The notes beneath the pieces are model-generated. The model saw nothing but the letters and a program-made list of their open reading frames with translations, was not told the origin of the DNA and did no database searches. From an uncultured Candidatus Cloacimonadota bacterium (GTDB lineage: Bacteria > Cloacimonadota > Cloacimonadia > Cloacimonadales > TCS61): a DNA stretch of 58,945 nt. Positions within the stretch are counted from its first letter, which is position 1, and every line of letters begins with the position of its first letter. Location of the stretch: the NCBI GenBank assembly GCA_964457455.1, contig CAYWJN010000004.1:1-58945 (forward strand), read 5' to 3'. A program made the translations under genes and the position numbers. Of this stretch, positions 6,291-22,461 are shown in pieces.

Positions 6291-7472
6291 CTACTTTAAA
6301 AATTTTTTCTTTAATTGAGGAACGATTTCAAAAAGGTCACCTACAAGTCCGAGGTCTGCGATTTTAAAAATCGGAGCATCCGGATCTTTATTGATTGCAA
6401 TAATATAATCTGCAGACTGCATTCCAGCTAAATGCTGAATCGCACCGGAAATTCCAATGGCAATATAAACTTTTGGTTTGATCGTTTTTCCAGTTTGCCC
6501 AACCTGGTGAGAATAGGCAATCCACTCAGCATCTACAGCAGCTCTGGAAGCTCCAATTGCTGCATTAATAGTTTCTGCCAATTCCTTAATAAGTACAAAA
6601 TTTTCCTTCTTCTTTAAACCTCTTCCACCTGAAATCACAAAATCTGCTTCTGTTAAATTTACAGTTTGGGTTTCGTCTTTTACAAATCCAAGATATTTTG
6701 AATCGTCATTCAAGTTTGAAAAATCAATTTTTTCTTGGATTACTTCACCTTTCCTGGAATCATCTTTTTGTAGAGAATCCATAACCTTATGACGAACCGT
6801 AGACATCTGTGGACGATGATTCGGAGTAACAATTGTAGCCATAATGTTGCCACCGAAAGCCGGTCTTGTTTGAAGCAATCCTGCACTTTCTTTATCTATT
6901 TCCAAACCGGTACAATCAGCAGTAAGTCCGGTTTGCAGTTCGATGGCAACGCGAGGGATAAATGAGCGTCCCATTACGGAAGCACCGGAAAGGATAATTT
7001 CAGGTTTATATTTTTTGGCAAGTTCAGAGAGAGCTTTTGAATAGGGCAAATCGAGAAAATGCTCCAAAACAGGATCATCTACAAATATGACTTTGTCAGC
7101 CCCATAAGCGATTAAATCATTTGTAAGAATTGAAATTTTAGAGCCAAAAAGAACTGCAACTAATTCTGTTTTTCTCTGCTCTGCCAGTTCTCTTCCTTTG
7201 CCTAAAAGTTCAAAAACAACCGGAGCAATTTCTCCGTTTTTCTGTTCTGCAAATATCCAAACTCCATTATGCTGATCTTTATTCAAATTTTGCTGCTCAG
7301 ATTTTCTGATTATAATTGCATCAAAAGAACAGTCGCTTACACAAGCTCCGCAAAGAGTACATTTTTCCAAATCTATTTCTGCAATTCCATCCTTCATTAC
7401 AATTGCATCATAAGCACAAGATTTGATACACAATTCACAGCCAACACATTTATCGCGAATAACTTTAATCAT
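6291..7472 (-). CDS. etfA: Electron transfer flavoprotein alpha subunit with N-terminal 2x[4Fe-4S] ferredoxin domain
   Basis: CVGCELCIKSC and CTLCGACVSDC at the N-terminus; TGLTADCT, RPAFGGN, SGGRG, QVGQTGK, GISGAIQHLAGM. Confidence 0.93.
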   Translation of the reverse strand: MIKVIRDKCVGCELCIKSCAYDAIVMKDGIAEIDLEKCTLCGACVSDCSFDAIIIRKSEQQNLNKDQHNGVWIFAEQKNGEIAPVVFELLGKGRELAEQRKTELVAVLFGSKISILTNDLIAYGADKVIFVDDPVLEHFLDLPYSKALSELAKKYKPEIILSGASVMGRSFIPRVAIELQTGLTADCTGLEIDKESAGLLQTRPAFGGNIMATIVTPNHRPQMSTVRHKVMDSLQKDDSRKGEVIQEKIDFSNLNDDSKYLGFVKDETQTVNLTEADFVISGGRGLKKKENFVLIKELAETINAAIGASRAAVDAEWIAYSHQVGQTGKTIKPKVYIAIGISGAIQHLAGMQSADYIIAINKDPDAPIFKIADLGLVGDLFEIVPQLKKKFLK

Positions 7473-9900: not shown

Positions 9901-10467
9901 CTTTTTTCCCGTATAAGATGAAAATATCTTTTGTTTAATTTTTTGTTCCATTTTACTATCACCACATGCTGAATATGTAGCCATTTGACATAACCCTATC
10001 AATGTATATGCACCACCTTGAAATTGGATCAAAAATTCATTCTTTGGTTCAGGTGAGCCTATTACTTTATGTACATCAACGGACAATGTTCTTGAAAGAG
10101 CATCCATATCTCCATGGCAATCAGTATATCTTTCACGATATTTCCATGCTCTTGATCCTTCTTCTACCCTTAAATGGTTGCTTAACATGTAATCAAATGA
10201 TAGTTGATCTCTTATATCTTCAATGTAATTCCATGCAATTCCTATCATCGATGTAAGCTGAAATGCCTTTAATATGTCCTCCAATTCACTTTCCGATCTT
10301 ATTTCCTTTGATACTTTAGAGACATCAACTCCTTCTCTTTTTAATTGAGATAACGAACCGAATATATACTCTTCTCTTAAGGTTTCAAAAGATAAAATTA
10401 GTGCATTAATAATATCAGGAAAATTACCTTTACTAACGAAAATTCGTTTTCTACCAAATAAGCTCAT
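9895..10467 (-). CDS. Hypothetical protein (cassette-like cargo)
   Basis: 190-aa ORF with GGAGGG RBS; its stop is embedded in the attC R'' box; no family recognised. Confidence 0.75.
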   Translation of the reverse strand: MSLFGRKRIFVSKGNFPDIINALILSFETLREEYIFGSLSQLKREGVDVSKVSKEIRSESELEDILKAFQLTSMIGIAWNYIEDIRDQLSFDYMLSNHLRVEEGSRAWKYRERYTDCHGDMDALSRTLSVDVHKVIGSPEPKNEFLIQFQGGAYTLIGLCQMATYSACGDSKMEQKIKQKIFSSYTGKKS

Positions 10468-10492
10468 ACTTTATCCCTCCGCGTATTAACAA

Positions 10493-11014
10493 CTACTTAT
10501 TACAATACTCAACTTCCTCGGCAATAATTTTGTCAATAATTTCAAAATACATTCTTAATTCTTTAGCTTCTTCGTGAAGAATATCGAATTCACGATTATC
10601 ATAAAGGAAACAACATATATCGGAAATGTGCTTTTCAGACAATTTAAACCACTCACCTTTAAAATTTAGATGTTTATAATTTTCATGAAGAAATTTTTCT
10701 AAGTATGCAATTTCCCTCCCTAAAAAATCTTCCATATCAGCTTCTACAGCAACAATAAACTTCAAATCAAATGGACAACCGATTTGTAGTGTTTTAATAC
10801 GTTTTTCAATATTGTTTGTTATTCCTATTTCGTAGTAAATAAATGGGCAGCAACGAATAATGTATAAATATCTTGGAGCATCGTTACTCTCCAACAATTT
10901 TTTAAAATTATCTTGTGCCTTTTGTTCTTCTTCTTTATTTAAATTGCTATAATCAAAAAGATCAGCAATATTTTGATGATCTTGTTGTGTAAAATTTACA
11001 CTTTCATAATTCAT
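10493..11014 (-). CDS. T5orf172/MUG113-type GIY-YIG nuclease domain protein
   Basis: YLYII...EIGITNNIEKRIKTLQIGCP...LEKFLHENYKHLNFKGEWFKL matches the GIY-YIG-like T5orf172 pattern (KIG.T...RL..LQTG.P...E..LH......GEWF). Confidence 0.8.
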   Translation of the reverse strand: MNYESVNFTQQDHQNIADLFDYSNLNKEEEQKAQDNFKKLLESNDAPRYLYIIRCCPFIYYEIGITNNIEKRIKTLQIGCPFDLKFIVAVEADMEDFLGREIAYLEKFLHENYKHLNFKGEWFKLSEKHISDICCFLYDNREFDILHEEAKELRMYFEIIDKIIAEEVEYCNK

Positions 11015-11215
11015 TCAAAATCTCCAATTATTATCTTATAAGTTTGTATTAACCTGCTCAAATAATCAGTATATACCATTTCCATGTCCTTTAGCTTAAA
11101 ACTACGTCAATAACGATGAGTAAACTTTCAAAGTCAAATAAAAAAACTGAAGTGCGGATTTTTCAAACTTGCGTCAAGTTTAGGCTCAGTTTCAGTAAGC
11201 TGGAAGCTTGCTCTT

Positions 11216-11234
11216 CTCGACCTGGCAGGTCGAG
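11216..11234. repeat. GC-rich hairpin in a palindrome cluster upstream of hppA
   Basis: ctcgacct-ggc-aggtcgag; nearby aaacttg-cgt-caagttt (11165-11181) and aagctggaagctt. Confidence 0.45.
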
Positions 11235-11326
11235 TTACAGGTCGAACTACAATTCTTGACAAATACGTTGAGCTTAATTTGTTGTCTCATTCATATATAA
11301 CTAAAAAATGACTCAGGAGGGTTTAA

Positions 11327-13588
11327 ATGAACATTCCATTAATCTGGTATGTTGCACCGTTTGGCGCCGTAATGGCATTAATATTTGCGTTTATCTTATT
11401 TAAAGGTGTAAAAAAGGAAGATCCCGGTAATAAGCAGATGCAGAAAATTGCAAAATATGTTCGTGAAGGGTCTTTTGCTTACCTGAAACAGCAATACAAA
11501 GGTGTTACAATTTTCTTTATTATTGCATTTATTCTTTTTAATATTATGGCTCATATTCTGCATGTGCTTCACTGGCTCATTCCTTTTGCATTTCTCACCG
11601 GTGGATTTTTCAGTGGGCTTGCCGGCTGGATAGGAATGAATACCGCAACCCTTGCTTCCAATAGAACAGCCCAGGGAGCTTCTAAAAGTCTTGATAAAGG
11701 TTTGAAGGTTGCTTTCCGTGCCGGTGGAGTAATGGGACTTGTAGTTGTTGGATTGGCATTAGTAGATATTTCTGCCTGGTTTTTTATTATGAAAAATTTC
11801 ATGAAATTAGACCTTCATACGATAACTGTAGTTATGCTCAGCTTTGGAATGGGAGCTTCTACCCAGGCACTTTTTGCCCGCCTTGGTGGAGGAATCTATA
11901 CAAAAGCTGCAGACGTGGGTGCAGACCTGGTAGGAAAAGTCGAAGCTGGAATCCCGGAAGACGACCCGCGTAATCCTGCCACGATAGCAGATAACGTGGG
12001 AGATAACGTTGGTGATGTAGCAGGAATGGGTGCAGACCTCTATGAATCTTATTGCGGTTCGATATTGGCAACTGCTGCTTTGGGAATGGCAGCAGTAACT
12101 CAGATATTCGGTCATGGAACTGTAGATATGAATACCTGGGCTATCAAGTTCGTAACTGCTCCGATGGTTCTTGCAGGGGTAGGTGCATTCCTTTCCATTT
12201 TGGGAATTTATATGGTTTCCACCAAGGAAGGCGCAGATACCAAAGAACTGCTGTTCGCCTTGAACAAAGGTGTTTACGGAAGCTCAATCCTGATAGCGAT
12301 AGTTGCATTTTTTGTTACAAAGTTCATGCTTCCTGCAGAGTATTCGCTGGGTGTTTTCCTGGCAAGTATGATAGGACTTTTTGCAGGGATACTGATAGGA
12401 TTTTTTACTGAACGCTCAACTTCACACAGCTATGCTCCTACTCGTGGAATTGTAAAACAGGCAGAGTTCGGACCTGCCACAGTGATCATCGATGGACTTG
12501 CAGTGGGAATGAAATCCGTAGCAGCTCCGGTTATTATCATTGGAATTGCCATTCTGGCAGCTTTCGGTGTGAGTAAAGGATTCACAACTCCGGAAATGGG
12601 ACTTTACGGAATAGGCTTTGGAGCTGTGGGAATGCTTGCCACTCTGGGCGTAACTCTTGCTATGGATGCGTTTGGACCGATAGCAGATAATGCAGGCGGG
12701 AATGCAGAAATGAGCAAGCTTCCGGAAAAAGTGAGAAAAAGAACAGATGACCTTGATTCTGTAGGAAACACAACTGCTGCCACAGGAAAAGGCTTTGCAA
12801 TCGGTTCGGCTGCACTTACCGCTATGGCACTTCTGGCAGCTTATCTCGAAGAAGTGAGAGTAGGATTGATCTTTGCCGGTGAGAAAGCCGGATTGGAAGT
12901 CAGCAAGATAGTTATGGACATAAAGATGGCAAATGGTGAGATTTTTGCAGTGGAAACAGCAAAAGCTACAATTGCAGATTTTATAAATTACTATCAAATC
13001 AATTTAATGAATCCCAAATTCTTAATTGGTATTTTTATGGGAGCTATGGTTACATTCGTTTTTGCTGCACTCACGATGAAAGCTGTAGGACGGGCAGCCG
13101 GAGCAATGGTTGCAGAAGTACGACGTCAGTTCAAAGAAATCCCGGGTATTTTGGAAGGTACAGCAGAACCCGAATATGCAAAGTGTGTTCATATATCTAC
13201 AGTTGGAGCACAAAAGGAAATGGTTGCTCCTGCTCTGTTGGGAATTCTCACACCTATTGTTATTGGTATGATAACTGGCGTTGCAGGTGTGATGGGAGTT
13301 TTAACGGGCGGATTAACAACAGGTTTTGTGCTGGCAGTTATGATGAACAATGCTGGAGGTGCTTGGGATAATGCAAAAAAATATGTTGAAACAGGGCATT
13401 TTGGCGGCAAGGGTTCCGATTATCATAAGGCAACTGTGGTTGGAGATACTGTGGGTGATCCGTTCAAGGATACATCCGGTCCTTCCATAAATATCCTCAT
13501 AAAACTTATGAGTATGGTCAGCATTGTTTTCGCAGGTCTTATCGTTGCCTTTTCTCCCGCTATCCAAAAATTTCTCGGAATCATCTAA
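11327..13588 (+). CDS. hppA: Membrane-integral K+-dependent Na+ (probably Na+,H+)-translocating pyrophosphatase
   Basis: [35 protein letters not shown] (Ala, K+-dependent type), [14 protein letters not shown]; TTGACA at 11256 and AGGAGG RBS. Confidence 0.97.
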
Positions 13589-13610
13589 AAAAGATAAAAA
13601 TTCCTTTACA

Positions 13611-13637
13611 AAAGACGGGACTTTTTGTCCCGTCTTT
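13611..13637 (+). terminator. Intrinsic terminator-like hairpin after hppA
   Basis: aaagacgggac-ttttt-gtcccgtcttt, 11-bp stem. Confidence 0.7.
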
Positions 13638-13643
13638 CCTATT

Positions 13644-15773
13644 ATGAAAAAGAAAATAATTATCGGTTCACTTCTCATTTTCTCTCTCTTTTTGCATTCG
13701 CAGGATAAGATAGGACTTGCCCTCAGCGGTGGCGGTGCTCGCGGGTTGGCTCAAATTGGTGTTTTAAAGGTAATCGATGAATTAGGAATTCAGGTTGATT
13801 TCATTGCTGGAACAAGCACCGGAGCTCTCATTGGTGGATTATATGCTATGGGTTATTCCGGTGCAGAGATCGAAGAAATTTTTCTTAAAATGGATTGGAA
13901 AGAAATCCTTAATGACAAAATTTCCCGAAAAGATATTTACATCAGCCAGAAACGTTGGCAACCATATGAAAATTTCTCTTTCGACCTTGATGAAAACTAT
14001 TTACCAAAAATACCTCAAGCTTTTTTTGTAGGAAATAACCTGATAAATTTTTTATTTGATCTTACATATCCGGTTTCTGTAGTAGCAAATTTCAATGAAT
14101 TACCTATTCCATTTCGCTGTAATGCAACCAATATCTTAACTGGAGAACTTAAAGTTTTTTCTGATGGTCCTCTTCACGAAGCAATTCGCTCTTCCATTTC
14201 TTTCCCTTCTATTTTAAAGCCTTTTGAATTGGATGATGGGCTGTATGTTGATGGTGGATTGCTGGCAAATTTGCCTGCTGAGATTGTTGCAGAAATGGGT
14301 GCAGATTTTGTGATTGGTGTACAGACAAATTCCGGTTTAAAAGAAAAAGAGGAAATTGAAAGCTTGATCGATGTGCTGGATCAAACTGTGAACCTGAGCA
14401 TCACGAGTAATATCAACAAATCTACTGAATTTTGTGATTTGATCATCAAGCCAGAGTTGGATAATATTTCGGTTCTGGATTTTTCAAAGAAAAAAGAGAT
14501 CATTTTAGCAGGAGAAATTGCCGCCAGGAAACATCTTCAAAAAATAGAAAATTCAAAAAAGAAAACTATAAAACAAATAAATATACTTCCACCTGAAATA
14601 CAATTTTCAAAAATTATAATTCTGGGAAACAAACATTTAAGTAAATCCAAAGTAAAAGAATTTTTAGGTTTGAAAACAGATATATTTTATGTAAAATCCG
14701 ATATTATTCTGGCAGTGAAAAATGCTTATGACTCCCAACTATTCTCTCTGATTTATCCAATAATTGAAAAAATAGATGAAAAATATATCATCAAAATCAA
14801 GGTAAGAGAAAATGATAGGAAGCAGTTGGGAATAAACTTTGGTTACATCAATAATAAGGATATTATTCTGGGTGCTACTTTCAGTTTTGATAATATGATT
14901 CAGAGGAATTCCAAACTTTTATTCAATTTTCAAGTTGGTGATAAAAAAGAACTTAACCTCGATTATGTGAAAAATTTCGGTAAACACTGGGGAATCTATT
15001 TCAGGATCTTTCCATATCTAAAAGAACAAAGAATCTATTCTTATAATGAAGAGCATAAAAAAACCGGTAGTGTGAAATCATTGGAAACAGGCGGTACTAT
15101 TGGAATTGGAATTTATGCAAAAAAAGCTGTGATTCTCGAAGGTTACGGCTTTACATTTAATACCAGACTTTACCAGGATATTGCGGATTTTGAAGACAGA
15201 TATTATCATTCAACAGGAGTTGGTCTGAAATTGTATCATGAAAACCTGGATGATTTTGTGTTTCCCATGAAAGGGCTGCAATTCCTGATGAAATTTAATA
15301 CAGCCAGAAAGATTTTCTTCAGCGACAGCGGTTATAAAAAGTTATACTCAAAAGCACGGATTTTAATACCTTTCAAAGATAAGATTTCATTAAAATGTCA
15401 GTTTGAATATGGTACTTATTTCAAAAAATATGATTTAGATTTTGATCCGTTTTACATTGGTGGGATCGATAGTTTTCTGGGTTGTTACACCGGTGAACGC
15501 AGTGCTCCAATATACAAAATACACTCTCTCGCAATAAGATATAAAATTTTGAATAATCTTTTTGCGGATTTACAGTACAATTTATTAAATCTTGGAACTA
15601 AAGATGTCTGGCTTCCGGAAAAGAATCTTTATCCTGCTTATGGTATAAAAATCGGTTATAAATCTTTACTCGGACCGGTGAGAGTTGCCGCTGCCATCGA
15701 TGAGGAAAATAGAACTTACTATTATCTTTCCATTGGCTACGAATTCGACCCATTTGAATTCTCCAGAAGATAA
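13644..15773 (+). CDS. Patatin-like phospholipase with POTRA and C-terminal beta-barrel (PlpD-like)
   Basis: Signal peptide from ATG 13644 (MKKKIIIGSLLIFSLFLHS), GLALSGGGARG, GTSTG nucleophile, DGG motif, POTRA-like IIILGNKHL segment, barrel-like C-terminus. The ORF-track start 13524 overlaps hppA and is unlikely. Confidence 0.88.
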   Translation: MKKKIIIGSLLIFSLFLHSQDKIGLALSGGGARGLAQIGVLKVIDELGIQVDFIAGTSTGALIGGLYAMGYSGAEIEEIFLKMDWKEILNDKISRKDIYISQKRWQPYENFSFDLDENYLPKIPQAFFVGNNLINFLFDLTYPVSVVANFNELPIPFRCNATNILTGELKVFSDGPLHEAIRSSISFPSILKPFELDDGLYVDGGLLANLPAEIVAEMGADFVIGVQTNSGLKEKEEIESLIDVLDQTVNLSITSNINKSTEFCDLIIKPELDNISVLDFSKKKEIILAGEIAARKHLQKIENSKKKTIKQINILPPEIQFSKIIILGNKHLSKSKVKEFLGLKTDIFYVKSDIILAVKNAYDSQLFSLIYPIIEKIDEKYIIKIKVRENDRKQLGINFGYINNKDIILGATFSFDNMIQRNSKLLFNFQVGDKKELNLDYVKNFGKHWGIYFRIFPYLKEQRIYSYNEEHKKTGSVKSLETGGTIGIGIYAKKAVILEGYGFTFNTRLYQDIADFEDRYYHSTGVGLKLYHENLDDFVFPMKGLQFLMKFNTARKIFFSDSGYKKLYSKARILIPFKDKISLKCQFEYGTYFKKYDLDFDPFYIGGIDSFLGCYTGERSAPIYKIHSLAIRYKILNNLFADLQYNLLNLGTKDVWLPEKNLYPAYGIKIGYKSLLGPVRVAAAIDEENRTYYYLSIGYEFDPFEFSRR

Positions 15774-16339: not shown

Positions 16340-19300
16340 ATGAGAAAGAATCTGGCTTGGATTATCGTTCTAATATTTGTTTTATTTCTTTTGATAAGCT
16401 GTACAGATAGTGTAAAAAAAATATTACACTTTGCTGAAGATATCCGTGTTGAATATTCCAAATGTTCAGCTTGTTATGAATGTATAAACAATTTCCAGTG
16501 CCCTGAAGATGCGATCAAAATCGATAACAGAACCTACACGGTTTATATCGATTCAGACAAATGTGTTGGATGCATGAAATGCATAAACCAGTTCCAATGC
16601 CCGGAAAATGCCATAACTATCAAAAGAGACCTTATCTCACCTGCAGAAATCAGCAATTTTAATGCTGTCTCAAATTCTATTGGAGAACTGAATATCCAAT
16701 TTATTGCAACAGGTGATGATTCCACTTTTGGTCGCGCTTTCAGATATGAATTTAGTCTAAAAAACCAAAATGGAATAGAAATTGAAACCGACTTTGAAGT
16801 TCCGTTGCCGCTTCAAGCCGGAGCTTTGGAAGCTTGGACAATTCAGGATCTGCCTGAAAATGAGATGCTCACAGTTCAGCTTCAGGCATTCGATGAAGTA
16901 GAACAAAGCTGTGAATCCACTTATCAGCAGGTCTTGATTCAAGGCATCATTCCAGATACAATTCCTCCAGCTCCAATCACAGACCTTTCAGTTGGCTCGG
17001 TTTCTCAAAATACAATTTTATTAAATTGGACAGCAGTCGGTGATGATAGTCTGGAAGGAACTGCTCAATCTTACATCATGAAAATATCTAATGAAGAAAT
17101 AACCATTCAAAACTGGGAAGATATTGACGAATATGAACAGAATTTAATTCCACAGGAATCCGGTTCATCCGAATCAATTGTAATATCAGATTTAGATGCA
17201 TCCACAAATTATTTTGCAGCTATAAAAGTTTTGGATGATGCTCAGAATCTATCTTTTTTATCAAATGTAATTTCCGAAACAACCTCAGATTTACCTGATG
17301 AAACTCCTCCTGCTGGCATCAATGATTTGCAGGTAGAATCCACTCAAACAGAAATTACTTTGTCCTGGACTTCTACTGGTGATGACGGGTTTGAAGGCAC
17401 CGCTTATGAATATATCATCAAAGTTCATGATGCTCCCATTAATGTCTCCAACTGGGATGAAGCGGAAACTTTGCCAAATCCTCCCACACCATTACCTTCC
17501 GGTTCCCTGCAATCCTATCTTTACACGGATGTAGAGTTTGGAATCGTTTATTATTTTGCCATAAAAGTTTATGATGATGTCCTCAATGAATCTGAAATTT
17601 CCAATGTTGTGAATTCAACTTTACTTGAAGATTCGATTCCTCCAGCAACAATAACCGATCTTTCTGTGGATTCTGTTTCTCAAAATACAATCCTCATAAA
17701 CTGGACAGCAGTTGGTGATGATGGTTTGGAAGGAACTGCTCAATCCTACATCATAAAAATAAATACTGAAGAAATCACCATAGAGAATTGGGACGATTTA
17801 CCAGCATATGAACAAAGCGTAATTCCTCAAGAATCAGGAGCTTTGGAATCATTTGTAATAGCTGGTTTAGAATCTTCTACAAATTATTACGCTGCTATCA
17901 AAGTTCTGGATGAAGTTCAAAATATCTCTTCCTTATCAAATGTTATCAATGCATATACTTCAGAAATTCCAGATACAATTCCTCCTGCAGCAATTGATGA
18001 CCTGCAGGCTGAATCTTCTGAAATAGAAATCATATTATCCTGGACTTCTACCGGAGATGATGGATTAGAAGGAATTGCCTTTGCTTATGAAATAAAAGTT
18101 CATGATGAACTGATAACCGAAGATAATTGGGAAATTGCTGATCTTCTCCCCAATCCCCCGACTCCGCTGCCTTCCGGTTCGCAACAAAATTATTCTTATC
18201 TTGAAGGTGAGCCGGGAACTGTTTACTTTTTTGCTATTAAAGTTTTGGATGATGTTCTCAATGTTTCTCCTCTTTCAAATGTTATTAATTCGACTTTGCT
18301 TGAAGATACAACTCCACCAGCTCAAATAACCGATCTGGAAGTTGGTTCGGTTTCTACAGAAACAATTCAATTGAACTGGACTGCTGTTGGTGATGATGGT
18401 TTGGATGGAACTGCTCAATCTTATATTATAAGAATAAGTACTGTAGAAATCTCTAATTTGAATTGGGAATTTTTACCTGAATTTCCCCAAAATATGATCC
18501 CTCAAGCTCCAGGAACTTTGGAATCTATTGTGATTACGGAATTAGAGCCTTCCACAAATTATTATGCGGCTGTAAAAGCAGTAGATGACGCACAAAATAT
18601 TTCACCTCTATCTAATGTGGTAAATGAAACAACTGCAAATTTGCCGGATTACATTCCTCCAGCTGCCATCGATGATCTTGATGCTGAACCCGATCAATCA
18701 GATATAATCCTCATCTGGACAGCTACCGGTGATGACGGATATGAAGGAACTGCCTACGAATATGAAATCCGATATGCTGAGATTCCAATTACAGAAGGGA
18801 ATTGGGATGAAGCTGAACTTTTACCAAATCCTCCTATTCCGCTTCCTTCAGGTTCCATTCAGAATTATACTTTTTCAGATGGGATTGTGGGTATAACCTA
18901 TTATTTTGCCATCAAAGTTTATGATGATGTTCTGAATGTCTCCCCTATATCAAACAATGCCACAGCTATCTTGGAAGAAGATTTAATCCCGCCTTCAGCA
19001 ATAACAGATTTATCTGTATTGGAGATTATTCCGGTAAATCTTTCAACTATAAAAATAAGCTGGACTGCACCCGGAGATGATGGTGATGAGGGAACTGCTT
19101 CCTTATATGAAATCCGATATCACAATACACCAATAACTGAATTAAACTGGCAAAATGCAACTCTGTATCCTGACCCGCCGGAACCGGAAATTGCCGGAAC
19201 TTATCAAACCTGTAATGTGACAAATTTGCAAGTAGGAACTATTTATTACTTTGCCATAAAAGCATTTGATGAGAATAACAATGCCGGTGATATTTCCAAT

Positions 19301-19501
19301 TCCCCAGGTGGAAAGATAGTATATCAGATCAATCACGCTGCCTGCCGTAACTGTAACAGTTGCATTAATACTTGCAGCTATGGAGCTATATCACAGGGAC
19401 CGGGTTATAAAACGATTGACCCGGATCTTTGCACTGCATGTGGAACTTGTGTTCCGTATTGTAATTGGAACTTAATTTATCGATTTGTAGTTGCTTACTG
19501 A
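16340..19501 (+). CDS. Lipoprotein: N-terminal 2x[4Fe-4S]-type domain, eight FN3-like repeats, C-terminal 2x[4Fe-4S]-type domain
   Basis: Lipobox LLISC (Cys21). CSACYECINNFQCP and CVGCMKCINQFQCP at the N-terminus; eight D..PP..I.DL...W(T)A.GDD..G.A..Y repeats; CRNCNSCINTC and CTACGTCVPYC at the C-terminus. Confidence 0.9.
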   Translation: MRKNLAWIIVLIFVLFLLISCTDSVKKILHFAEDIRVEYSKCSACYECINNFQCPEDAIKIDNRTYTVYIDSDKCVGCMKCINQFQCPENAITIKRDLISPAEISNFNAVSNSIGELNIQFIATGDDSTFGRAFRYEFSLKNQNGIEIETDFEVPLPLQAGALEAWTIQDLPENEMLTVQLQAFDEVEQSCESTYQQVLIQGIIPDTIPPAPITDLSVGSVSQNTILLNWTAVGDDSLEGTAQSYIMKISNEEITIQNWEDIDEYEQNLIPQESGSSESIVISDLDASTNYFAAIKVLDDAQNLSFLSNVISETTSDLPDETPPAGINDLQVESTQTEITLSWTSTGDDGFEGTAYEYIIKVHDAPINVSNWDEAETLPNPPTPLPSGSLQSYLYTDVEFGIVYYFAIKVYDDVLNESEISNVVNSTLLEDSIPPATITDLSVDSVSQNTILINWTAVGDDGLEGTAQSYIIKINTEEITIENWDDLPAYEQSVIPQESGALESFVIAGLESSTNYYAAIKVLDEVQNISSLSNVINAYTSEIPDTIPPAAIDDLQAESSEIEIILSWTSTGDDGLEGIAFAYEIKVHDELITEDNWEIADLLPNPPTPLPSGSQQNYSYLEGEPGTVYFFAIKVLDDVLNVSPLSNVINSTLLEDTTPPAQITDLEVGSVSTETIQLNWTAVGDDGLDGTAQSYIIRISTVEISNLNWEFLPEFPQNMIPQAPGTLESIVITELEPSTNYYAAVKAVDDAQNISPLSNVVNETTANLPDYIPPAAIDDLDAEPDQSDIILIWTATGDDGYEGTAYEYEIRYAEIPITEGNWDEAELLPNPPIPLPSGSIQNYTFSDGIVGITYYFAIKVYDDVLNVSPISNNATAILEEDLIPPSAITDLSVLEIIPVNLSTIKISWTAPGDDGDEGTASLYEIRYHNTPITELNWQNATLYPDPPEPEIAGTYQTCNVTNLQVGTIYYFAIKAFDENNNAGDISNSPGGKIVYQINHAACRNCNSCINTCSYGAISQGPGYKTIDPDLCTACGTCVPYCNWNLIYRFVVAY
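16964..19000 (+). repeat. Intragenic tandem repeat, 675-nt (225-aa) two-domain unit
   Basis: The PP codons of the A-type repeats start at 16964, 17639, 18314 and 18989, each exactly 675 nt apart. Confidence 0.85.
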
Positions 19502-19568
19502 TAAATCATAATCCAAAAGGAAAATAGATGAAAAATAATTACATATTACATTCGACACCACTTACTCC

Positions 19569-19697
19569 TTCCGAAGCTTCCGCTTCGGAAACTAATAGGA
19601 TTTGAAGTGTTTGATCCAGCGTTGAAAACTCCTAATTCGCTCTTGAGTGAAGCAGAAGCTTCTGAAGTTAGTGCCTTCCGAACTAAAAAGTTCGGAA
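19569..19697. repeat. Cluster of REP-like palindromes at the 5' end of the ferredoxin gene
   Basis: ttccgaagcttccgcttcggaa, gaagcagaagcttc, ttccgaactaaaaagttcggaa. Confidence 0.65.
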
Positions 19698-19969
19698 GGA
19701 GAAAATCAATATGTCGGAAATTTAATTCACTCATTAGTATATTTTTAATCCTGTTTTTTTTAACGATTTCGATTTTCGCACTTAAAATCAGCAAAATTTA
19801 TATTGAAGCAAATTCTTGTGTAGGTTGCGGAGATTGTGTATTGGTTTGCCCTATTGTAGATGCAATTGAGATCATAGATGGCAAAGCAGTTATCGATATA
19901 AAAGTTTGCATTGAATGTGATATTTGCGTGAAATCCTGTACATACAATGCCATCAGGAAATCCGAATGA
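19607..19969 (+). CDS. Exported or membrane-anchored 2x[4Fe-4S] ferredoxin (start uncertain)
   Basis: Hydrophobic signal-like segment SLISIFLILFFLTISIFA, then CVGCGDCVLVCP and CIECDICVKSC. GTG start has AGGA 6 nt upstream; the 5' region is occupied by palindromes. Confidence 0.8.
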   Translation: MFDPALKTPNSLLSEAEASEVSAFRTKKFGRRKSICRKFNSLISIFLILFFLTISIFALKISKIYIEANSCVGCGDCVLVCPIVDAIEIIDGKAVIDIKVCIECDICVKSCTYNAIRKSE

Positions 19970-20214
19970 AAAAAATTGTTCATTTCATTCTAATTGGATT
20001 ACTTGGATTTATTATCTTTTTAGGATGCGAGAAAATCAGTAACCTGGAATACAATATTGACAGCAGCTCATGTAATTCCTGTGGAAAATGTATGCAAATC
20101 TGTCCTGTGGATGCCATAGATTTTGGAGAAGATGGAAAAGCAATTATTGACCAGACAAAATGTAACCAGTGCGGACAATGCATCTATATCTGCCCAAAAG
20201 ATGCCATTTACTAA
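19966..20214 (+). CDS. Lipoprotein 2x[4Fe-4S] ferredoxin
   Basis: MKKIVHFILIGLLGFIIFLGC lipobox; CNSCGKCMQICP and CNQCGQCIYICP; ATGA overlap with the previous stop. Confidence 0.9.
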   Translation: MKKIVHFILIGLLGFIIFLGCEKISNLEYNIDSSSCNSCGKCMQICPVDAIDFGEDGKAIIDQTKCNQCGQCIYICPKDAIY

Positions 20215-21452
20215 TGAAGAAAATTGTAATTTTATTTATTTTATTTTTTATTTTCTCCTTCGGAAATTCCGAGATTCTTAATTGGAGTCAAATCAGTTAT
20301 CAAGCCTTTCTCACAGGTTCTTCGGACGATGTCGATGTTGTTACATCTTCCAGTCCAAATGCAGATAATTCTGTAAATACAAAATTAAAATCAGGCATAA
20401 GATGGAAGCATGAATTCAAAAGGAATTTCGATAATTTCAATATTTCCTTAAAGAACGATTTTTTCTATTCAGAAAAAAGTCATGAATCCAGAAACTCTTT
20501 TTTCTTTAATGATGCAAAACTGAAATTATCTTATTTTCCATACTCACATTATATCAAATTTCAATATAGAAATCGCTGGTTCGATAAGGACAATACCAGG
20601 ATCTTAACAATTCCGGGAACAGAAGAAATTACCAAACAGAAAATGATTCATAATACAGAATTGCAGTATAAATCAAATTGGAAAAAATTAAATTTTTCTT
20701 TCTATGGTAAACTCAGAAATCTTGATTATAATTATTTCATTTTTGATGAAGAAAATTCTAATGATGAGTTTGCCAAATTTACCGAATGGGAAAACGATAT
20801 TTGTACTTCAGCGAAGATTTCTTATGAAATAAACAATCTTTTTAATCTTTTTGTTTCAGGATATTATAAAGATGATTTGAATGAATATAACTGGTTTAAT
20901 CATACGAAATTAGGTGTAGGATTGAACTATTACAAAAAGTACAATTTCTTTAATTTCTTAAATGCGAATTTCACTTATTTTCATAATGATTCCGAGCAAA
21001 TCTCAGACGAGAAAATGCATTATTTCATTACACAGATGCGTTACACAAAAAGAATCGGAACTTCTTTAGCCGGATTTATCTCATACATAAACCGTTCCTG
21101 TTATGATTCTAAACAAGGCAAACTTTTACGAATTTCCAATATGTTGAAGCTTCACGCAAAATATAGTTATAGATTAGATACTTTTCTAGATTCTTATGTG
21201 ATTGCTGGAATCAAAATTAATCCTGAAAATAAGGGAAATCTGATTTTCTCTGAACTTAATCATAATCTTTACAAAAATATTTTTGGTTTGTTTTCGCTCA
21301 AATATGCTGATGAATTATTTTATGCTTTCAGCACCGGATTTGAATATTATCTCTCTCCTGTAAAATCTTTCTGGATCAATAACGAATTTACAGATTTCAA
21401 AAAAACGCCCATCCAAAATATTATTTTTATAGGTTCAACTATTTTGTTTTAA
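20214..21452 (+). CDS. Predicted outer-membrane beta-barrel protein (412 aa)
   Basis: Signal peptide MKKIVILFILFFIFSFGNS, many amphipathic Tyr/Phe-rich strands, terminal Phe (FIGSTILF); TAATG overlap with the upstream gene. Confidence 0.7.
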   Translation: MKKIVILFILFFIFSFGNSEILNWSQISYQAFLTGSSDDVDVVTSSSPNADNSVNTKLKSGIRWKHEFKRNFDNFNISLKNDFFYSEKSHESRNSFFFNDAKLKLSYFPYSHYIKFQYRNRWFDKDNTRILTIPGTEEITKQKMIHNTELQYKSNWKKLNFSFYGKLRNLDYNYFIFDEENSNDEFAKFTEWENDICTSAKISYEINNLFNLFVSGYYKDDLNEYNWFNHTKLGVGLNYYKKYNFFNFLNANFTYFHNDSEQISDEKMHYFITQMRYTKRIGTSLAGFISYINRSCYDSKQGKLLRISNMLKLHAKYSYRLDTFLDSYVIAGIKINPENKGNLIFSELNHNLYKNIFGLFSLKYADELFYAFSTGFEYYLSPVKSFWINNEFTDFKKTPIQNIIFIGSTILF

Positions 21453-21462
21453 AGGATATTGA

Positions 21463-22461
21463 ATGCTGCGCACATTAATTGAAGGTTTTGCTTTAGGTCT
21501 TTCCACCGGTTCGATTTGCCTGGCAACCTGTACTCCCATTTATCTGCCCTACCTGCTTACCGAAGAACGAAAACTGAGTAAAAGCCTGCTCAAAGTGGCA
21601 GAAATTTCTGCTGGCAGATTTTTTTCTTACATAGCTTTTGGAGCTGCTGCTGGTTATGCTGGAGCAAATATTACTTCCATCGATAGAGAAATTTTCACTT
21701 CGATTGCCTACATCCTGCTTTCTATTTATCTTATTTTGAGTGCTTATCGCGCCCATCAACACGATAAAAAATGTCATGTCCCAAAAATTGCTCGATTTAC
21801 AAGAAATGCATTTATCTTAGGAATTTTAACAGGTATTAATTTCTGTCCTGCCTTTCTGATTGCACTTTCCAAAGCAGTCAATCTGGGTGGGATGTTCAGC
21901 GGAATGTTTTTATTTTTAGGTTTCTTTTTTGGAACCACCCTTTTCCTGATTCCTCTGGCGTTTTTTGGATTATTATCCAAAATAAACGTGATGAAACTCA
22001 TCGCTCAAATAGCATCAGTTCTTATTGCAATCTGGTTTATTTTTACTGGAATTAAGGGAATAATACATTGGAACGAACACAGGATAATATCTGAAGAACC
22101 AGCCAGAATCGTTGAAGTTTTCGCTCCCAGACAGTCAATTTTAATTATCTCAAACGAAAATAACCTCGAGTATTTTTCAGCTTTAAAAGACTCCATTTCA
22201 TCATTTCATAATGCAAAGATAAAGCTTCATAAAACGCAAAAAGTTGTTCCGGATTCTTTTAAGTTCGATGCTGATTTGATAATTTTTGCAGATTCGGAAT
22301 TGTTTGAATTAAAATCTAATAATTTAATTTTAGAAAACTTTGATTATTTCCAGGTAGAAACAGATTATCCGATTCCCCAAATGTTGAATTTTTTGAGAAA
22401 ATTCACATTTAAAACCAGAGATAAATTACACTGGAAATTTTCTTTGGAAGATAGTTCTTAG
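21463..22461 (+). CDS. DsbD_2/CcdA-like (TauE/SafE-annotated) membrane protein with extra C-terminal soluble domain
   Basis: About 6 TM helices with GLSTGSICLATCTP and GINFCP cysteine motifs, followed by about 130 hydrophilic residues. Confidence 0.78.
   Translation: MLRTLIEGFALGLSTGSICLATCTPIYLPYLLTEERKLSKSLLKVAEISAGRFFSYIAFGAAAGYAGANITSIDREIFTSIAYILLSIYLILSAYRAHQHDKKCHVPKIARFTRNAFILGILTGINFCPAFLIALSKAVNLGGMFSGMFLFLGFFFGTTLFLIPLAFFGLLSKINVMKLIAQIASVLIAIWFIFTGIKGIIHWNEHRIISEEPARIVEVFAPRQSILIISNENNLEYFSALKDSISSFHNAKIKLHKTQKVVPDSFKFDADLIIFADSELFELKSNNLILENFDYFQVETDYPIPQMLNFLRKFTFKTRDKLHWKFSLEDSS

Follow-up and report, generated by a model that had tools for sequence, protein, structure and literature searches.

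Exported ferredoxins in Cloacimonadota: a ferredoxin-FN3-ferredoxin lipoprotein, its conserved operon and a putative Fe-S electron relay

In MtrCAB (Shewanella), PioAB and Geobacter Pcc, a single operon encodes a redox lipoprotein on the surface together with a large outer-membrane barrel and small redox proteins of the periplasm. In Gram-positive flavin-based extracellular electron transfer (PplA, FmnB), a lipid-anchored redox protein is exported by Sec and receives its cofactor after export via operon-encoded factors. Known periplasmic ferredoxins have twin-arginine signals and are exported folded. To our knowledge, no well-studied extracytoplasmic Fe-S protein lacks a Tat signal, and a pathway that assembles Fe-S after export is not known either, nor did we find one in the literature searched.

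Here we describe an operon from Cloacimonadota with a comparable layout, i.e., a predicted surface redox lipoprotein (BIG), small exported ferredoxins and a large barrel, encoded in a 58,945-nucleotide stretch of DNA analysed as a whole (the window). Anaerobic digesters and anoxic sediments harbour abundant Cloacimonadota, and how these bacteria transfer electrons between species has not been resolved; they appear in PMC7382037 only among pili-based candidates. Our main reading, to which we assign a probability of roughly 0.45, is a cytochrome-free Fe-S relay that would carry electrons across the envelope, its distal ferredoxin being tethered and its cofactors loaded once the proteins have been exported; what cofactors it holds, where it sits and what it does are all inferred. 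Nothing comparable to such a relay appeared in the literature searched.

Architecture of the lipoprotein and variation of its stalk

The gene and its parts are as follows.
16340..19501, + strand: BIG gene, ferredoxin-FN3x8-ferredoxin lipoprotein of 1053 aa (ORF; Pfam Fer4 and fn3; ~70 orthologs with the same architecture)
16340..16402, + strand: signal peptide, Sec/SPII-type, lipobox L-I-S-C (Cys21) followed by T-D-S, without twin arginine (sequence; family statistics)
16442..16630, + strand: N-terminal (membrane-proximal) dicluster ferredoxin, residues 35-97, two CxxCxxCx5CP motifs (Pfam; invariant Cys)
16631..16954, + strand: FN3-like domain R1, residues 98-205, conserved in the family but diverged relative to R2-R8 (repeat comparison; family HMM)
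16955..18979, + strand: FN3 repeats R2-R7, an A/B pair of domains (225 aa, 675 nt) present three times (675-nt direct repeats; identity matrix; AF2 strands)
18980..19309, + strand: FN3 repeat R8, residues 881-990 (Pfam; repeat comparison; AF2)
19310..19498, + strand: C-terminal (distal) dicluster ferredoxin, residues 991-1053, two CxxCxxCx3C motifs, ending V-V-A-Y (Pfam; PDB matches; family alignment)

This architecture is far beyond chance, and ~70 orthologs have all of it. The ORF starts with ATG, and as read from the sequence its leader consists of MRKN, a 15-residue hydrophobic run and L-I-S-C21. It thereby meets the criterion for a lipoprotein (positive n-region, hydrophobic h-region and a lipobox of the form [LVI][ASTVI][GAS]C), a layout common to the family, whose alignment also shows a Cys closing the hydrophobic segment; lipidation itself is inferred from these features. 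Because the lipid Cys stands ~20 residues ahead of the first cluster ligand, the N-terminal ferredoxin would lie against a membrane.

Both end domains exceed curated Fer4-clan thresholds and thus belong to the Fer4 family by sequence. The N-terminal domain (Fer4_6, 45.5 bits, cutoff 25; Fer4_10, 30.5 bits, cutoff 25.5) carries the ligand motifs C42-x2-C45-x2-C48-x5-C54-P and C75-x2-C78-x2-C81-x5-C87-P. All eight of its Cys are invariant across 53 sequences, its x5 rather than x3 spacing occurs in both motifs in 55 of 56 members, and PDB ferredoxins align to it with a 2-residue insertion. The distal domain (Fer4_7, 41.5 bits, cutoff 27; Fer4_21, 36.8 bits, cutoff 35) matches MvhB, HdrA and clostridial ferredoxins in the PDB, and its ligands are C1002/1005/1008/1012, followed by S, and C1031/1034/1037/1041, followed by N; the spacing of its second motif varies within the family (x3, x2 or x1). 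Measured against the canonical CxxCxxCxxxCP, the first domain has x5, and the second has x3 but, in the window's protein, S or N after the fourth Cys; the eight Cys per domain are invariant, and most members of the family retain a Pro behind the fourth Cys as well as the strand residues typical of ferredoxins. The AF2 model gives the N-terminal ferredoxin a pLDDT of ~50 (pTM 0.36) and is uninformative on whether the protein is extended or folds back.

Between these ends, the stalk meets the definition of FN3 (PF00041 and a seven-strand beta-sandwich): it scores 97.7 bits with PF00041 (cutoff 25), resolves into eight domains with a custom family HMM, is modelled with strands at pLDDT ~85-95, and has FN3/Ig arrays as its best Foldseek matches. 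The motif W-T/S-A/S-x-GDD-x2-G-x-A-x2-Y is found in seven of the eight repeats; R1 instead reads F-I-A-T-GDD and has the invariant residues G125, D126, D127, G131, Y136, D185 and E186. At the DNA level the A/B unit recurs three times at exact 675-nt spacing with 71-78% nucleotide identity. The A-type repeats (R2, R4, R6; 114 aa) are 63-72% identical and the B-type repeats (R3, R5, R7; 111 aa) 62-67%, as opposed to 36-48% between the types. The stalk is also an outlier in acidity among the proteins encoded in the window (pI 4.05; 149 D+E versus 18 K+R), which might hold it off a negatively charged surface. Separately, we observed that the GDD motif marks a widespread FN3 subtype present in many unrelated surface proteins and is not specific to BIG.

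We compared 71 complete BIG orthologs, nearly every one of them with a Cloacimonadota label. None of the 71 has lost either terminal ferredoxin domain or any of the 16 Cys, and the number of FN3 domains is 4 (18 orthologs), 5 (16), 6 (27), 7 (2), 8 (7) or 14 (1). Stalk length was altered repeatedly through internal duplication: with repeats 62-72% identical, the A/B triplication in the window is recent, whereas the repeats of other eight-domain lineages are merely 43-51% alike. Such variable FN3 numbers and independent recent duplications support spacer behaviour. Outside these 71 we noted a 12-FN3 ORF with a truncated N-terminus and one 3-FN3 relative. Distant relatives are modular, some consisting of the N-terminal ferredoxin and one FN3 domain without the distal ferredoxin.

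These results bear on a first-pass annotation made from the sequence alone. Its description of a 1053-aa lipoprotein with a dicluster ferredoxin at each end of eight FN3-like units held exactly, as did the x5 spacing in both N-terminal motifs, the S or N in place of P in the C-terminal domain, and the exact 675-nt period of an A/B pair repeated three times over repeats 2-7. A motif said to be shared by all eight repeats held only in part, R1 being the deviating one. The homolog comparison it proposed, in which a spacer should vary in length and the ends stay, came out as predicted, and the finding it named as refuting, a common loss of one or both ferredoxin domains or unconserved Cys among homologs, did not appear among the orthologs. 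Its suggestions that the GDDG loops bind Ca2+ and that the protein folds back or oligomerises are neither supported nor refuted.

Operon partners, export and cofactor loading

Downstream of BIG we identified the following features.
19675..19698, + strand: 9-bp perfect hairpin between BIG and the FdA gene (sequence; comparison with locus L006)
19607..19969, + strand: FdA, small secreted 2x[4Fe-4S] ferredoxin, ~55 aa mature, start codon uncertain here (Pfam; orthologs)
19966..20214, + strand: FdB, lipoprotein ferredoxin of 82 aa, F-L-G-C followed by E-K (Pfam; lipobox)
20214..21452, + strand: outer-membrane beta-barrel of 412 aa, ~20 strands, signal peptide, C-terminal Phe (AF2; homologs)
21463..22461, + strand: DsbD_2 (PF13386) six-helix membrane protein with a ~130-aa C-terminal domain of unknown fold (Pfam; alignment)

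To survey the operon we combined BIG-centred neighbourhoods with 54 species-level loci located via DsbD_2. The order BIG, FdA, FdB, ~20-strand outer-membrane barrel, DsbD_2 membrane protein is conserved, occurring in ~26 of these loci, with a BIG-less variant in ~14. The genes of FdA and FdB overlap by ATGA, and the FdB stop and barrel start by TAATG; owing to these overlaps, FdA, FdB and the barrel are probably translationally coupled. BIG heads the operon and is co-transcribed with the four downstream genes. In the window FdA has no canonical start codon, and the hairpin stretch stands where the 94%-identical locus L006 has its ATG start. FdA orthologs (76-91 aa, 43 loci) have SPI-type signals, the FdB lipobox is present in 39 of 42 orthologs, and each of the two proteins consists of nothing more than a minimal ferredoxin domain with canonical CxxCxxCxxxCP motifs. 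In many related loci a NapH-like PF12801 protein and a secreted polyferredoxin are encoded upstream; the window's own operon contains neither gene. Under our main reading, these genes constitute a module of exported ferredoxins specific to Cloacimonadota, with BIG as its outermost part.

The barrel has no Pfam or NCBIfam match, and all of its 29 homologs that bear a source name are from Cloacimonadota. Its AF2 model (20 strands, pLDDT 87, pTM 0.77) retrieved only generic large barrels in Foldseek, with MtrB (6r2q_B) at rank 46 (TMq 0.41); this lack of specific likeness to MtrB counts against our main reading. By standard geometry its C-alpha diameter would be ~36 A, a borderline fit for a 55-aa ferredoxin. 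The DsbD_2 protein (PF13386, 70.1 bits, cutoff 24.9) has 219 homologs, nearly all of those with a source name from Cloacimonadota, and its gene adjoins exported ferredoxin genes in most species loci. Four Cys are invariant in the alignment, C19 and C23 (both in TM1), C104, and C128 (in TM4); no relative with a solved structure was found.

Almost all of the operon's signals are of the Sec type, SPII in BIG and FdB and SPI in FdA, the polyferredoxin and the barrel. The Tat criterion (S/T-R-R-x-F-L-K in the n-region) is unmet in BIG, which has no RR; RR is likewise found in none of the 43 family members with a recognised lipobox, and in only 0-2 sequences per class across the operon proteins. Without Tat signals, any clusters that the domains carry must enter them once Sec has exported the proteins. 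A possible maturation factor is the DsbD_2 protein, which may keep Cys reduced or supply metal, its activity being inferred. Further points weigh against our main reading: no experiment shows extracellular Fe-S binding by any of these domains; the N-terminal domain has non-canonical x5 spacing, and the x3/x2/x1 variation in the second motif of the distal domain is odd for a conserved cluster ligand; AF2 confidence is low for the N-terminal ferredoxin; and the window's operon has no NapH-like or polyferredoxin gene and an FdA without a canonical start codon.

One alternative is that BIG is a non-redox surface adhesin or spacer, whose Cys-rich ends are structural (disulfide or Zn) or bind FeS minerals and resemble ferredoxins by ancestry only. 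Sec delivery of an unfolded apo-protein with no known assembly system, the non-canonical Cys spacings, the low AF2 confidence of the N-terminal domain, and the fact that tandem FN3 stalks are typical of adhesins all speak for it. However, 16 of 16 Cys are invariant at ferredoxin positions along with most of the Pro and strand residues, the partners FdA and FdB are pure canonical ferredoxins, a NapH-like partner is frequently there, and purifying selection over the entire ferredoxin set is hard to account for without clusters. We regard this alternative as very unlikely.

Another, also unlikely, is Fe-S capture and import, in which stalked apo-ferredoxins would scavenge Fe(II)/sulfide or FeS clusters from a sulfidic environment and deliver them, via the barrel, to ferredoxin carriers in the periplasm, which would in turn pass them to DsbD_2 as permease. 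In its favour, the gene set (surface lipoprotein, barrel, soluble and lipid-anchored binders, membrane protein) is shaped like an uptake system; the source annotation of the DsbD_2 protein is 'sulfite exporter TauE/SafE family', and PF13386 is a member of a superfamily of transporters, metal permeases among them; no unknown periplasmic Fe-S assembly machine would be required; and the very acidic stalk could bind cations. Against it, the NapH-like redox proteins and polyferredoxins frequent in the operons point to electron transfer, the barrel (412 aa, 20 strands) has no TonB plug, and plain capture needs no two distinct conserved ferredoxin types at opposite ends. Moreover, ferredoxin folds grip clusters tightly, and ferredoxins are not known to act as cluster donors.

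Location and the proposed electron relay

The first-pass annotation had the rod place the distal ferredoxin across the periplasm or above the surface. This placement is supported, and by analogy with a paralogous operon the evidence favours the surface. In sister variant operons, BIG's slot is occupied by a lipoprotein-FN3-ferredoxin and by a fusion, 178 aa long, of a ferredoxin with a sorting domain for T9SS (PF18962, 58 and 30.5 bits, cutoff 27), and T9SS cargo is also present in the variant-operon genome. These 178-aa ferredoxins score 55-68 bits with the HMM of the BIG distal domain, 40-57 with that of FdB and 19-32 with the others. A T9SS-sorted ferredoxin of the distal type in BIG's slot therefore points to the cell surface. 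BIG itself has no T9SS sorting domain (PF18962 or TIGR04183) and does not qualify as T9SS cargo; its own surface location rests on the analogy.

The residues after the lipid Cys offer a second analogy. The BIG family reads C-[S/T/A]-D-[D/S/T], with one or two acidic residues (C-T-D-S in the window), and FdB reads C-[D/K/E]-K. The BIG motif resembles the Bacteroidota surface-export signals, such as SDDDD and SDDFE (PMC5080379), for which the rule is that positions +2 to +5 from the lipid Cys hold a polar residue or Lys and then at least two acidic residues (PMC5080379). That this rule was derived in Bacteroidota and not in Cloacimonadota limits its weight here.

The competing location is a periplasm-confined relay, in which the lipoprotein stays on the periplasmic side of either membrane and its stalk bridges the periplasm with a ferredoxin at each membrane, carrying electrons from inner-membrane donors to outer-membrane or periplasmic enzymes. 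Lipoproteins face the periplasm by default, the partners are all periplasmic or membrane proteins, NapH-like proteins and polyferredoxins are typical periplasmic redox partners, and the eight-domain stalk, if extended to ~28 nm, would come near the periplasmic width. Yet a ruler for the periplasm should be constrained in length, which a 3.5-fold range (4 to 14 FN3) appears to exceed; the ferredoxin most closely related to the distal one is cargo of T9SS and is sent past the outer membrane; the residues after the lipid Cys differ between BIG and FdB, suggesting separate destinations, and a rigid bridge of cofactor-free FN3 would still be non-conducting. We consider this relay unlikely.

Under our main reading, electrons would exit the inner membrane via a NapH-like protein and polyferredoxin or, in the window's genome, an unlinked donor; as the former genes are absent from the window's operon, the electron source here is unknown. 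Small periplasmic ferredoxins would then pass electrons to the barrel, which may enclose a small ferredoxin in the way that MtrB encloses MtrA, or may anchor the lipoprotein, and electrons would arrive at the membrane-proximal N-terminal ferredoxin on the cell surface. The stalk has no redox centres and, assuming extension, spans ~28 nm (8 x ~3.5 nm), which rules out electron tunnelling between the ends; the first-pass annotation's claim to this effect held on the same condition. The distal ferredoxin would instead be a tethered shuttle, the flexing stalk letting its tip meet alternately the base and an external partner, e.g., a mineral, a sulfur species, humics or a syntrophic partner cell, with a stalk length matched to how thick the outer layers of the cell are. 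A bolder reading, which we hold more tentatively and would not favour over its negation, is that Cloacimonadota perform ferredoxin-based, cytochrome-free extracellular electron transfer, with DsbD_2-dependent [4Fe-4S] loading outside the cytoplasm by an unknown route, a dedicated barrel relay, and low-potential ferredoxins displayed on adjustable FN3 stalks or T9SS anchors for minerals or syntrophic partners.

If the domains do carry clusters, three textbook expectations fail together: the need of extracytoplasmic Fe-S proteins for Tat, the confinement of Fe-S assembly to the cytoplasm, and the reliance of diderm outer-surface electron transfer on multiheme cytochromes. Ferredoxins operate near -400 mV, low enough for CO2 reduction in a methanogenic partner; the system, if real, could therefore explain electron exchange by cytochrome-less syntrophic fermenters. 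The variable-length stalk is a natural experiment on the reach of a tethered redox carrier, and even with the redox reading wrong, a large, conserved, unannotated operon family with a clear experimental handle remains.

Comparison with known systems

The role proposed here, electron transfer across the outer membrane, is that of the porin-cytochrome conduits. In contrast to these, BIG combines Fe-S ferredoxin folds with a long cofactor-free spacer, and a reading of its sequence found no CxxCH heme motifs, so that BIG falls short of an MtrCAB-like conduit, which requires multiheme c-type cytochromes and a barrel of the MtrB/PioB family. The operon's barrel has ~20 strands rather than 26 and shows only generic structural likeness without sequence similarity, and unlike in those conduits no machinery is known for cofactor loading outside the cytoplasm.

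NapGH and NrfCD resemble many related loci in pairing a NapH-like PF12801 protein with a secreted polyferredoxin, and their ferredoxins belong to the same Pfam clan. They differ in twin-arginine, folded export, as opposed to the Sec-type, essentially RR-free signals here, and in that the window's operon has no NapH-like gene.

The DsbD_2 protein, with C-x3-C-[T/S]-P in TM1 and N-F-C-P in TM4, has Cys placed like the paired Cys of CcdA in cytochrome c maturation. Transporters of the CcdA/DsbD type are defined by two pseudo-symmetric transmembrane helices that each bear a redox-active Cys, whereas the topology and activity of the DsbD_2 protein are inferred. By this analogy it could keep the Cys of exported apo-proteins reduced, or it could instead be a transporter. 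It differs from DsbD proper in its Pfam family, two additional invariant Cys and an additional Cys-free C-terminal domain.

The system resembles Bacteroidota surface lipoproteins in an acidic motif after the lipid Cys of BIG, with one or two acidic residues where the Bacteroidota rule has at least two, and shares PF18962 (in the paralogous ferredoxin) with T9SS cargo; here, unlike there, the cargo is a ferredoxin. Ferredoxins are not known to travel by either route, and the literature searched contained no such report. As in tandem Ig/FN3 stalk adhesins, BIG's stalk is built of tandem beta-sandwich domains in variable copy number. PplA/FmnB, lastly, is alike in having a lipid-anchored, Sec-exported redox protein whose cofactor is loaded after export, as would be the case for BIG, and differs in its covalent flavin in place of Fe-S, in lacking both a stalk and an outer membrane, and in being unrelated to BIG by sequence.

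The lipoprotein and its variable stalk

BIG, our name for the large lipoprotein under study, is encoded by the following reading frame.

16340-19501, + strand: BIG, 1053 aa

BIG begins with MRKN; a hydrophobic stretch then leads to the lipobox L-I-S-C (Cys21), and the sequence has no twin arginine. In Pfam, each end matches dicluster ferredoxin models and the region between them matches fibronectin type III (FN3) domains, all above the curated cut-offs. The N-terminal ferredoxin domain carries the motif CxxCxxCx5CP twice, and the C-terminal (distal) one carries CxxCxxCx3C twice, followed by S and N. Within the stalk, the DNA contains a direct repeat whose three copies (71-78% identity) are spaced exactly 675 nt apart; this period is longer than the 500-nt limit of Tandem Repeats Finder, which gave no output, and the copies come from a separate direct-repeat search. 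At the protein level, identity is 63-72% among the A-type repeats (R2, R4 and R6; 114 aa) and 62-67% among the B-type repeats (R3, R5 and R7; 111 aa) but only 36-48% between A and B, and therefore a two-domain unit was triplicated in BIG. R1 is divergent, and R8 is closest to the B type. The first-pass annotation had proposed the reading frame, lipobox, two terminal dicluster ferredoxins and eight-unit rod, which the ORF and Pfam check upheld, as well as the 675-nt period and two-domain duplication, which the direct repeats and protein identities upheld.

The stalk is highly acidic (pI 4.05, with 149 D+E vs 18 K+R), making it an outlier in the source genome; a halophile trait was rejected as the cause, as other proteins of the window are mostly basic. 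The motif W-x-A-x-GDD-x2-G-x-A-x2-Y is not specific to BIG, as this FN3 subtype is also found in many unrelated surface proteins and forms the C-terminus of CLCA channels. AlphaFold modeled the FN3 domains confidently but did poorly on the apo-ferredoxin ends (about 50 for the N-terminal and about 70-85 for the C-terminal one); with a pTM of 0.36 the model does not inform the overall shape. A Foldseek search with whole BIG matched solely tandem FN3/Ig arrays. That BIG resides in the cytoplasm, anchored to the membrane by its N-terminus, was considered and rejected, given the conserved lipobox and the cleavable signals of its partners.

A search of 5.8 billion proteins recovered about 70 that share the BIG layout, almost all labelled Cloacimonadota. 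All full-length members keep the lipobox Cys and both ferredoxin domains, with the x5 spacing of the N-terminal domain in 55/56, and in an alignment of 53 family sequences 16/16 ligand Cys are invariant; two members have a one-residue insertion within a motif, every Cys still being present. Stalk length, as counted in 71 complete proteins by means of a family HMM, is 4 (n=18), 5 (n=16), 6 (n=27), 7 (n=2), 8 (n=7) or 14 (n=1) FN3 domains, and outside this set we found a 12-FN3 ORF with a cut N-terminus and a 3-FN3 relative. These counts bear out the first-pass prediction that a spacer should vary in length while both ends are kept, and what would have refuted it, ferredoxin ends often missing or their Cys unconserved, was not seen among full-length members. 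Repeats within a protein are 40-51% alike in most members, 62-72% in the BIG of the window and 65-68% for pairs in the 14-domain protein; this high identity indicates that stalks were lengthened independently and recently in more than one lineage.

Several side observations concern the family's sequences. In the last Cys motif of the distal domain (window 19430-19498), the third and fourth Cys are separated by three (x3), two (x2) or one residue (x1, C-x-C-P). In most members the C-terminus is V-V-A-Y, whose final aromatic residue recalls the beta-signal of outer-membrane proteins. A 532-aa metagenomic lipoprotein (P0362) combines two N-terminal ferredoxin modules (one x5-spaced), Ig-like domains and a C-terminal ferredoxin, and may, judging from sequence alone, represent a further multi-ferredoxin exported architecture.

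The operon encoding BIG

We examined the neighborhoods of five BIG orthologs, together with 54 species-representative loci found via DsbD_2 (PF13386), a membrane protein gene of the operon. The latter set is biased by construction to operons containing DsbD_2, and the constancy of this gene is partly an artefact; in the BIG-centered lookups it was adjacent in 4/5. The conserved order is BIG, FdA, FdB, a 375-480-aa protein without a Pfam match and DsbD_2. FdA (about 80 aa) is a minimal 2x[4Fe-4S] ferredoxin with a cleavable Sec signal, and FdB, a small ferredoxin of about 82-97 aa, has a lipobox in 39/42 orthologs. The last two genes lie in the window as follows.

20214-21452: barrel protein, no Pfam match; signal peptide and C-terminal aromatic residue
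21463-22461: DsbD_2 protein, Pfam DsbD_2

FdA and FdB overlap by ATGA, and FdB and the barrel gene by TAATG, which argues, by inference, for coupled translation and a complex. Signals of the operon proteins are of the Sec type, RR occurring in 0-2 sequences per class. That BIG is a non-redox adhesin whose Cys domains are merely structural is very unlikely, as its ferredoxin ligands are invariant and FdA and FdB are minimal canonical ferredoxins.

The barrel is predicted by AlphaFold to have 20 strands (pLDDT 87, pTM 0.77). All its homologs with a source name are from Cloacimonadota, and Foldseek found no specific relative, returning only generic large barrels (TonB-dependent transporters, porins, ushers, LptD and MtrB). 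The invariant Cys of DsbD_2 are C19 and C23 (C-L-x-T-C-[T/S]-P, TM1), C104-H and C128 (N-F-C-P, TM4); its C-terminal domain of roughly 130 aa has no Cys and no Pfam match, and a PDB profile search with the protein gave nothing meaningful. Nearly every source-named member of its 219 homologs is from Cloacimonadota. A longer form of 454-458 aa, whose extra part has no Pfam match, was seen in L035, L037, L039 and L056 (DsbD_2 at 10001-11377), and in three of these genomes (L035, L037 and L056) its gene lies apart from the ferredoxin operon.

Upstream of the operon, many loci carry two further genes, one for a secreted polyferredoxin and one for a membrane Fe-S protein of the NapH-like type (PF12801), both absent from the operon of the window. 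An alternative, that the operon serves to capture and import FeS material, fits the shape of the gene set, but the NapH-like proteins and polyferredoxins speak for a redox function, rendering it unlikely. In databases the proteins go under generic names ('fibronectin type III domain-containing protein', '4Fe-4S binding protein', 'sulfite exporter TauE/SafE'), and promoter and terminator scans gave fewer matches than shuffles and no useful boundary.

The BIG-FdA spacer of the window (19530-19730) differs from that of L006, a 94%-identical locus. A perfect 9-bp hairpin (CTTCCGAAC-N6-GTTCGGAAG) lies at 19675-19698, within a stretch that takes the place of FdA's ATG start, so that only GTG, TTG or ATA remain as start candidates. 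The ATG was lost to a hairpin-bearing insertion, and it is uncertain whether FdA is expressed in the window. A similar hairpin occurs in L006 at another place in its 425-nt spacer, and the stretch is possibly a small mobile or regulatory element. The 94% identity of L006 (JAUWNO010000109.1) extends over the whole operon, on a contig labelled Armatimonadota, and two further relatives are labelled Delongbacteria; these labels likely reflect binning or labelling errors rather than transfer.

Two other genes of the window were noted.

13524-15773, + strand: 749 aa, patatin-like phospholipase domain fused with an Omp85-type barrel; PlpD-like type Vd autotransporter architecture
6291-7472, - strand: electron-transfer flavoprotein alpha subunit with a 2x[4Fe-4S] ferredoxin domain at its N-terminus

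We take the product of the latter to be a cytoplasmic Etf linked to ferredoxin, such as syntrophic fermenters use.

Variant operons and the location of the distal ferredoxin

In about 14 species loci the operon lacks BIG, and two genes fill its slot. The first product is a lipoprotein that pairs one ferredoxin with an FN3-like domain; the second has 178 aa, with a ferredoxin between its signal peptide and a type IX secretion (T9SS) sorting domain (PF18962, 58 and 30.5 bits vs a cutoff of 27).

Variant operons with a T9SS-tailed ferredoxin
L027, L028, L038, L042, L043, L046-L050, L054, L055, L057, L058: about 7.2-8.4 kb in fully flanked loci

For 13/13 T9SS-tailed ferredoxins the best HMM was that of the BIG distal ferredoxin (55-68 bits), vs 40-57 bits for FdB and 19-32 bits for FdA and the N-terminal domain. 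The T9SS delivers its cargo beyond the outer membrane; we found no earlier report of a ferredoxin as such cargo in the literature searched. The source genome carries other T9SS cargo, and two very acidic secreted proteins indicate that it uses this secretion route.

55898-58237, - strand: very acidic secreted protein
32182-34824, - strand: very acidic secreted protein

One of them combines CARDB with a T9SS sorting domain, and the other sortilin/Vps10 repeats with a FlgD_ig-like tail.

After the lipid Cys, BIG and the variant lipoprotein read C-[S/T/A/N]-D-[D/S/T], and FdB reads C-[D/K/E]-K. In Bacteroidota, lipoproteins are sent to the surface by a polar residue with acidic residues after it (PMC5080379). 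On account of the T9SS paralog, these post-Cys residues and the range of 4-14 FN3 domains, we favor a distal ferredoxin exposed above the cell surface; this is inferred from paralogs and a rule of another phylum, without localization data. That BIG instead forms a bridge confined to the periplasm is unlikely, as both the variability in stalk length and the T9SS paralog stand against it.

A third variant (L060:6548-10680) encodes a 209-aa lipoprotein with an N-type ferredoxin and one FN3 domain and no distal ferredoxin. Its other products are a polyferredoxin, small ferredoxins resembling FdA and FdB, an OMP-like protein of 423 aa and a T9SS-tailed DUF2271 protein, and no DsbD_2 gene adjoins it. 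Thus, the membrane-proximal module appears constant and the distal module variable.

A putative relay across the envelope and its relation to known systems

The data show the domain layout, conservation, operon and export signals, and the barrel fold is predicted by a model. What we infer from them, an electron relay across the envelope to the N-terminal ferredoxin at the surface, falls just short of an even chance (~0.45), with cluster binding, location and function all computational. Electrons would pass from the inner membrane to the small periplasmic ferredoxins, then to the barrel and on to the N-terminal ferredoxin. By standard barrel geometry, and not from model coordinates, a 20-strand barrel would have a C-alpha diameter of about 36 A, borderline for a 55-aa ferredoxin.

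An FN3 domain is about 3.5 nm long. If extended, the eight-domain stalk would measure about 28 nm, and those of the family about 14-49 nm, far beyond tunnelling distance, so that the distal ferredoxin would exchange with the base only by bending of the stalk, as a tethered shuttle. Alternatively, it may exchange with neighboring molecules or partners. In the variant operons, a ferredoxin anchored by the T9SS and tethered flexibly through a glycolipid would serve the same function. Since the proteins lack Tat signals and would be exported by Sec, clusters would need to be inserted after export, an inference from the signals alone. DsbD_2 is a candidate helper, being the sole conserved gene that is neither ferredoxin nor barrel; it may keep the Cys reduced or move metal.

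The literature searched held no account of exported or surface ferredoxins or of the BIG operon, nor is the operon described in the Cloacimonadota genomics literature searched. We propose that it represents a system of a new kind; whatever is said here on function is computational. Closest in working are the porin-cytochrome conduits, from which the Cloacimonadota system differs in having neither hemes nor an MtrB-family barrel, both defining features of those conduits. With the Nap/Nrf systems it has NapH-like and polyferredoxin parts in common, whereas its operon proteins lack Tat signals. Gram-positive flavin-based electron transfer resembles it through post-export loading of the cofactor, which for Cloacimonadota is inferred. 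Finally, CcdA keeps apocytochrome Cys reduced, and DsbD_2 could, by analogy, act likewise on ferredoxin Cys.
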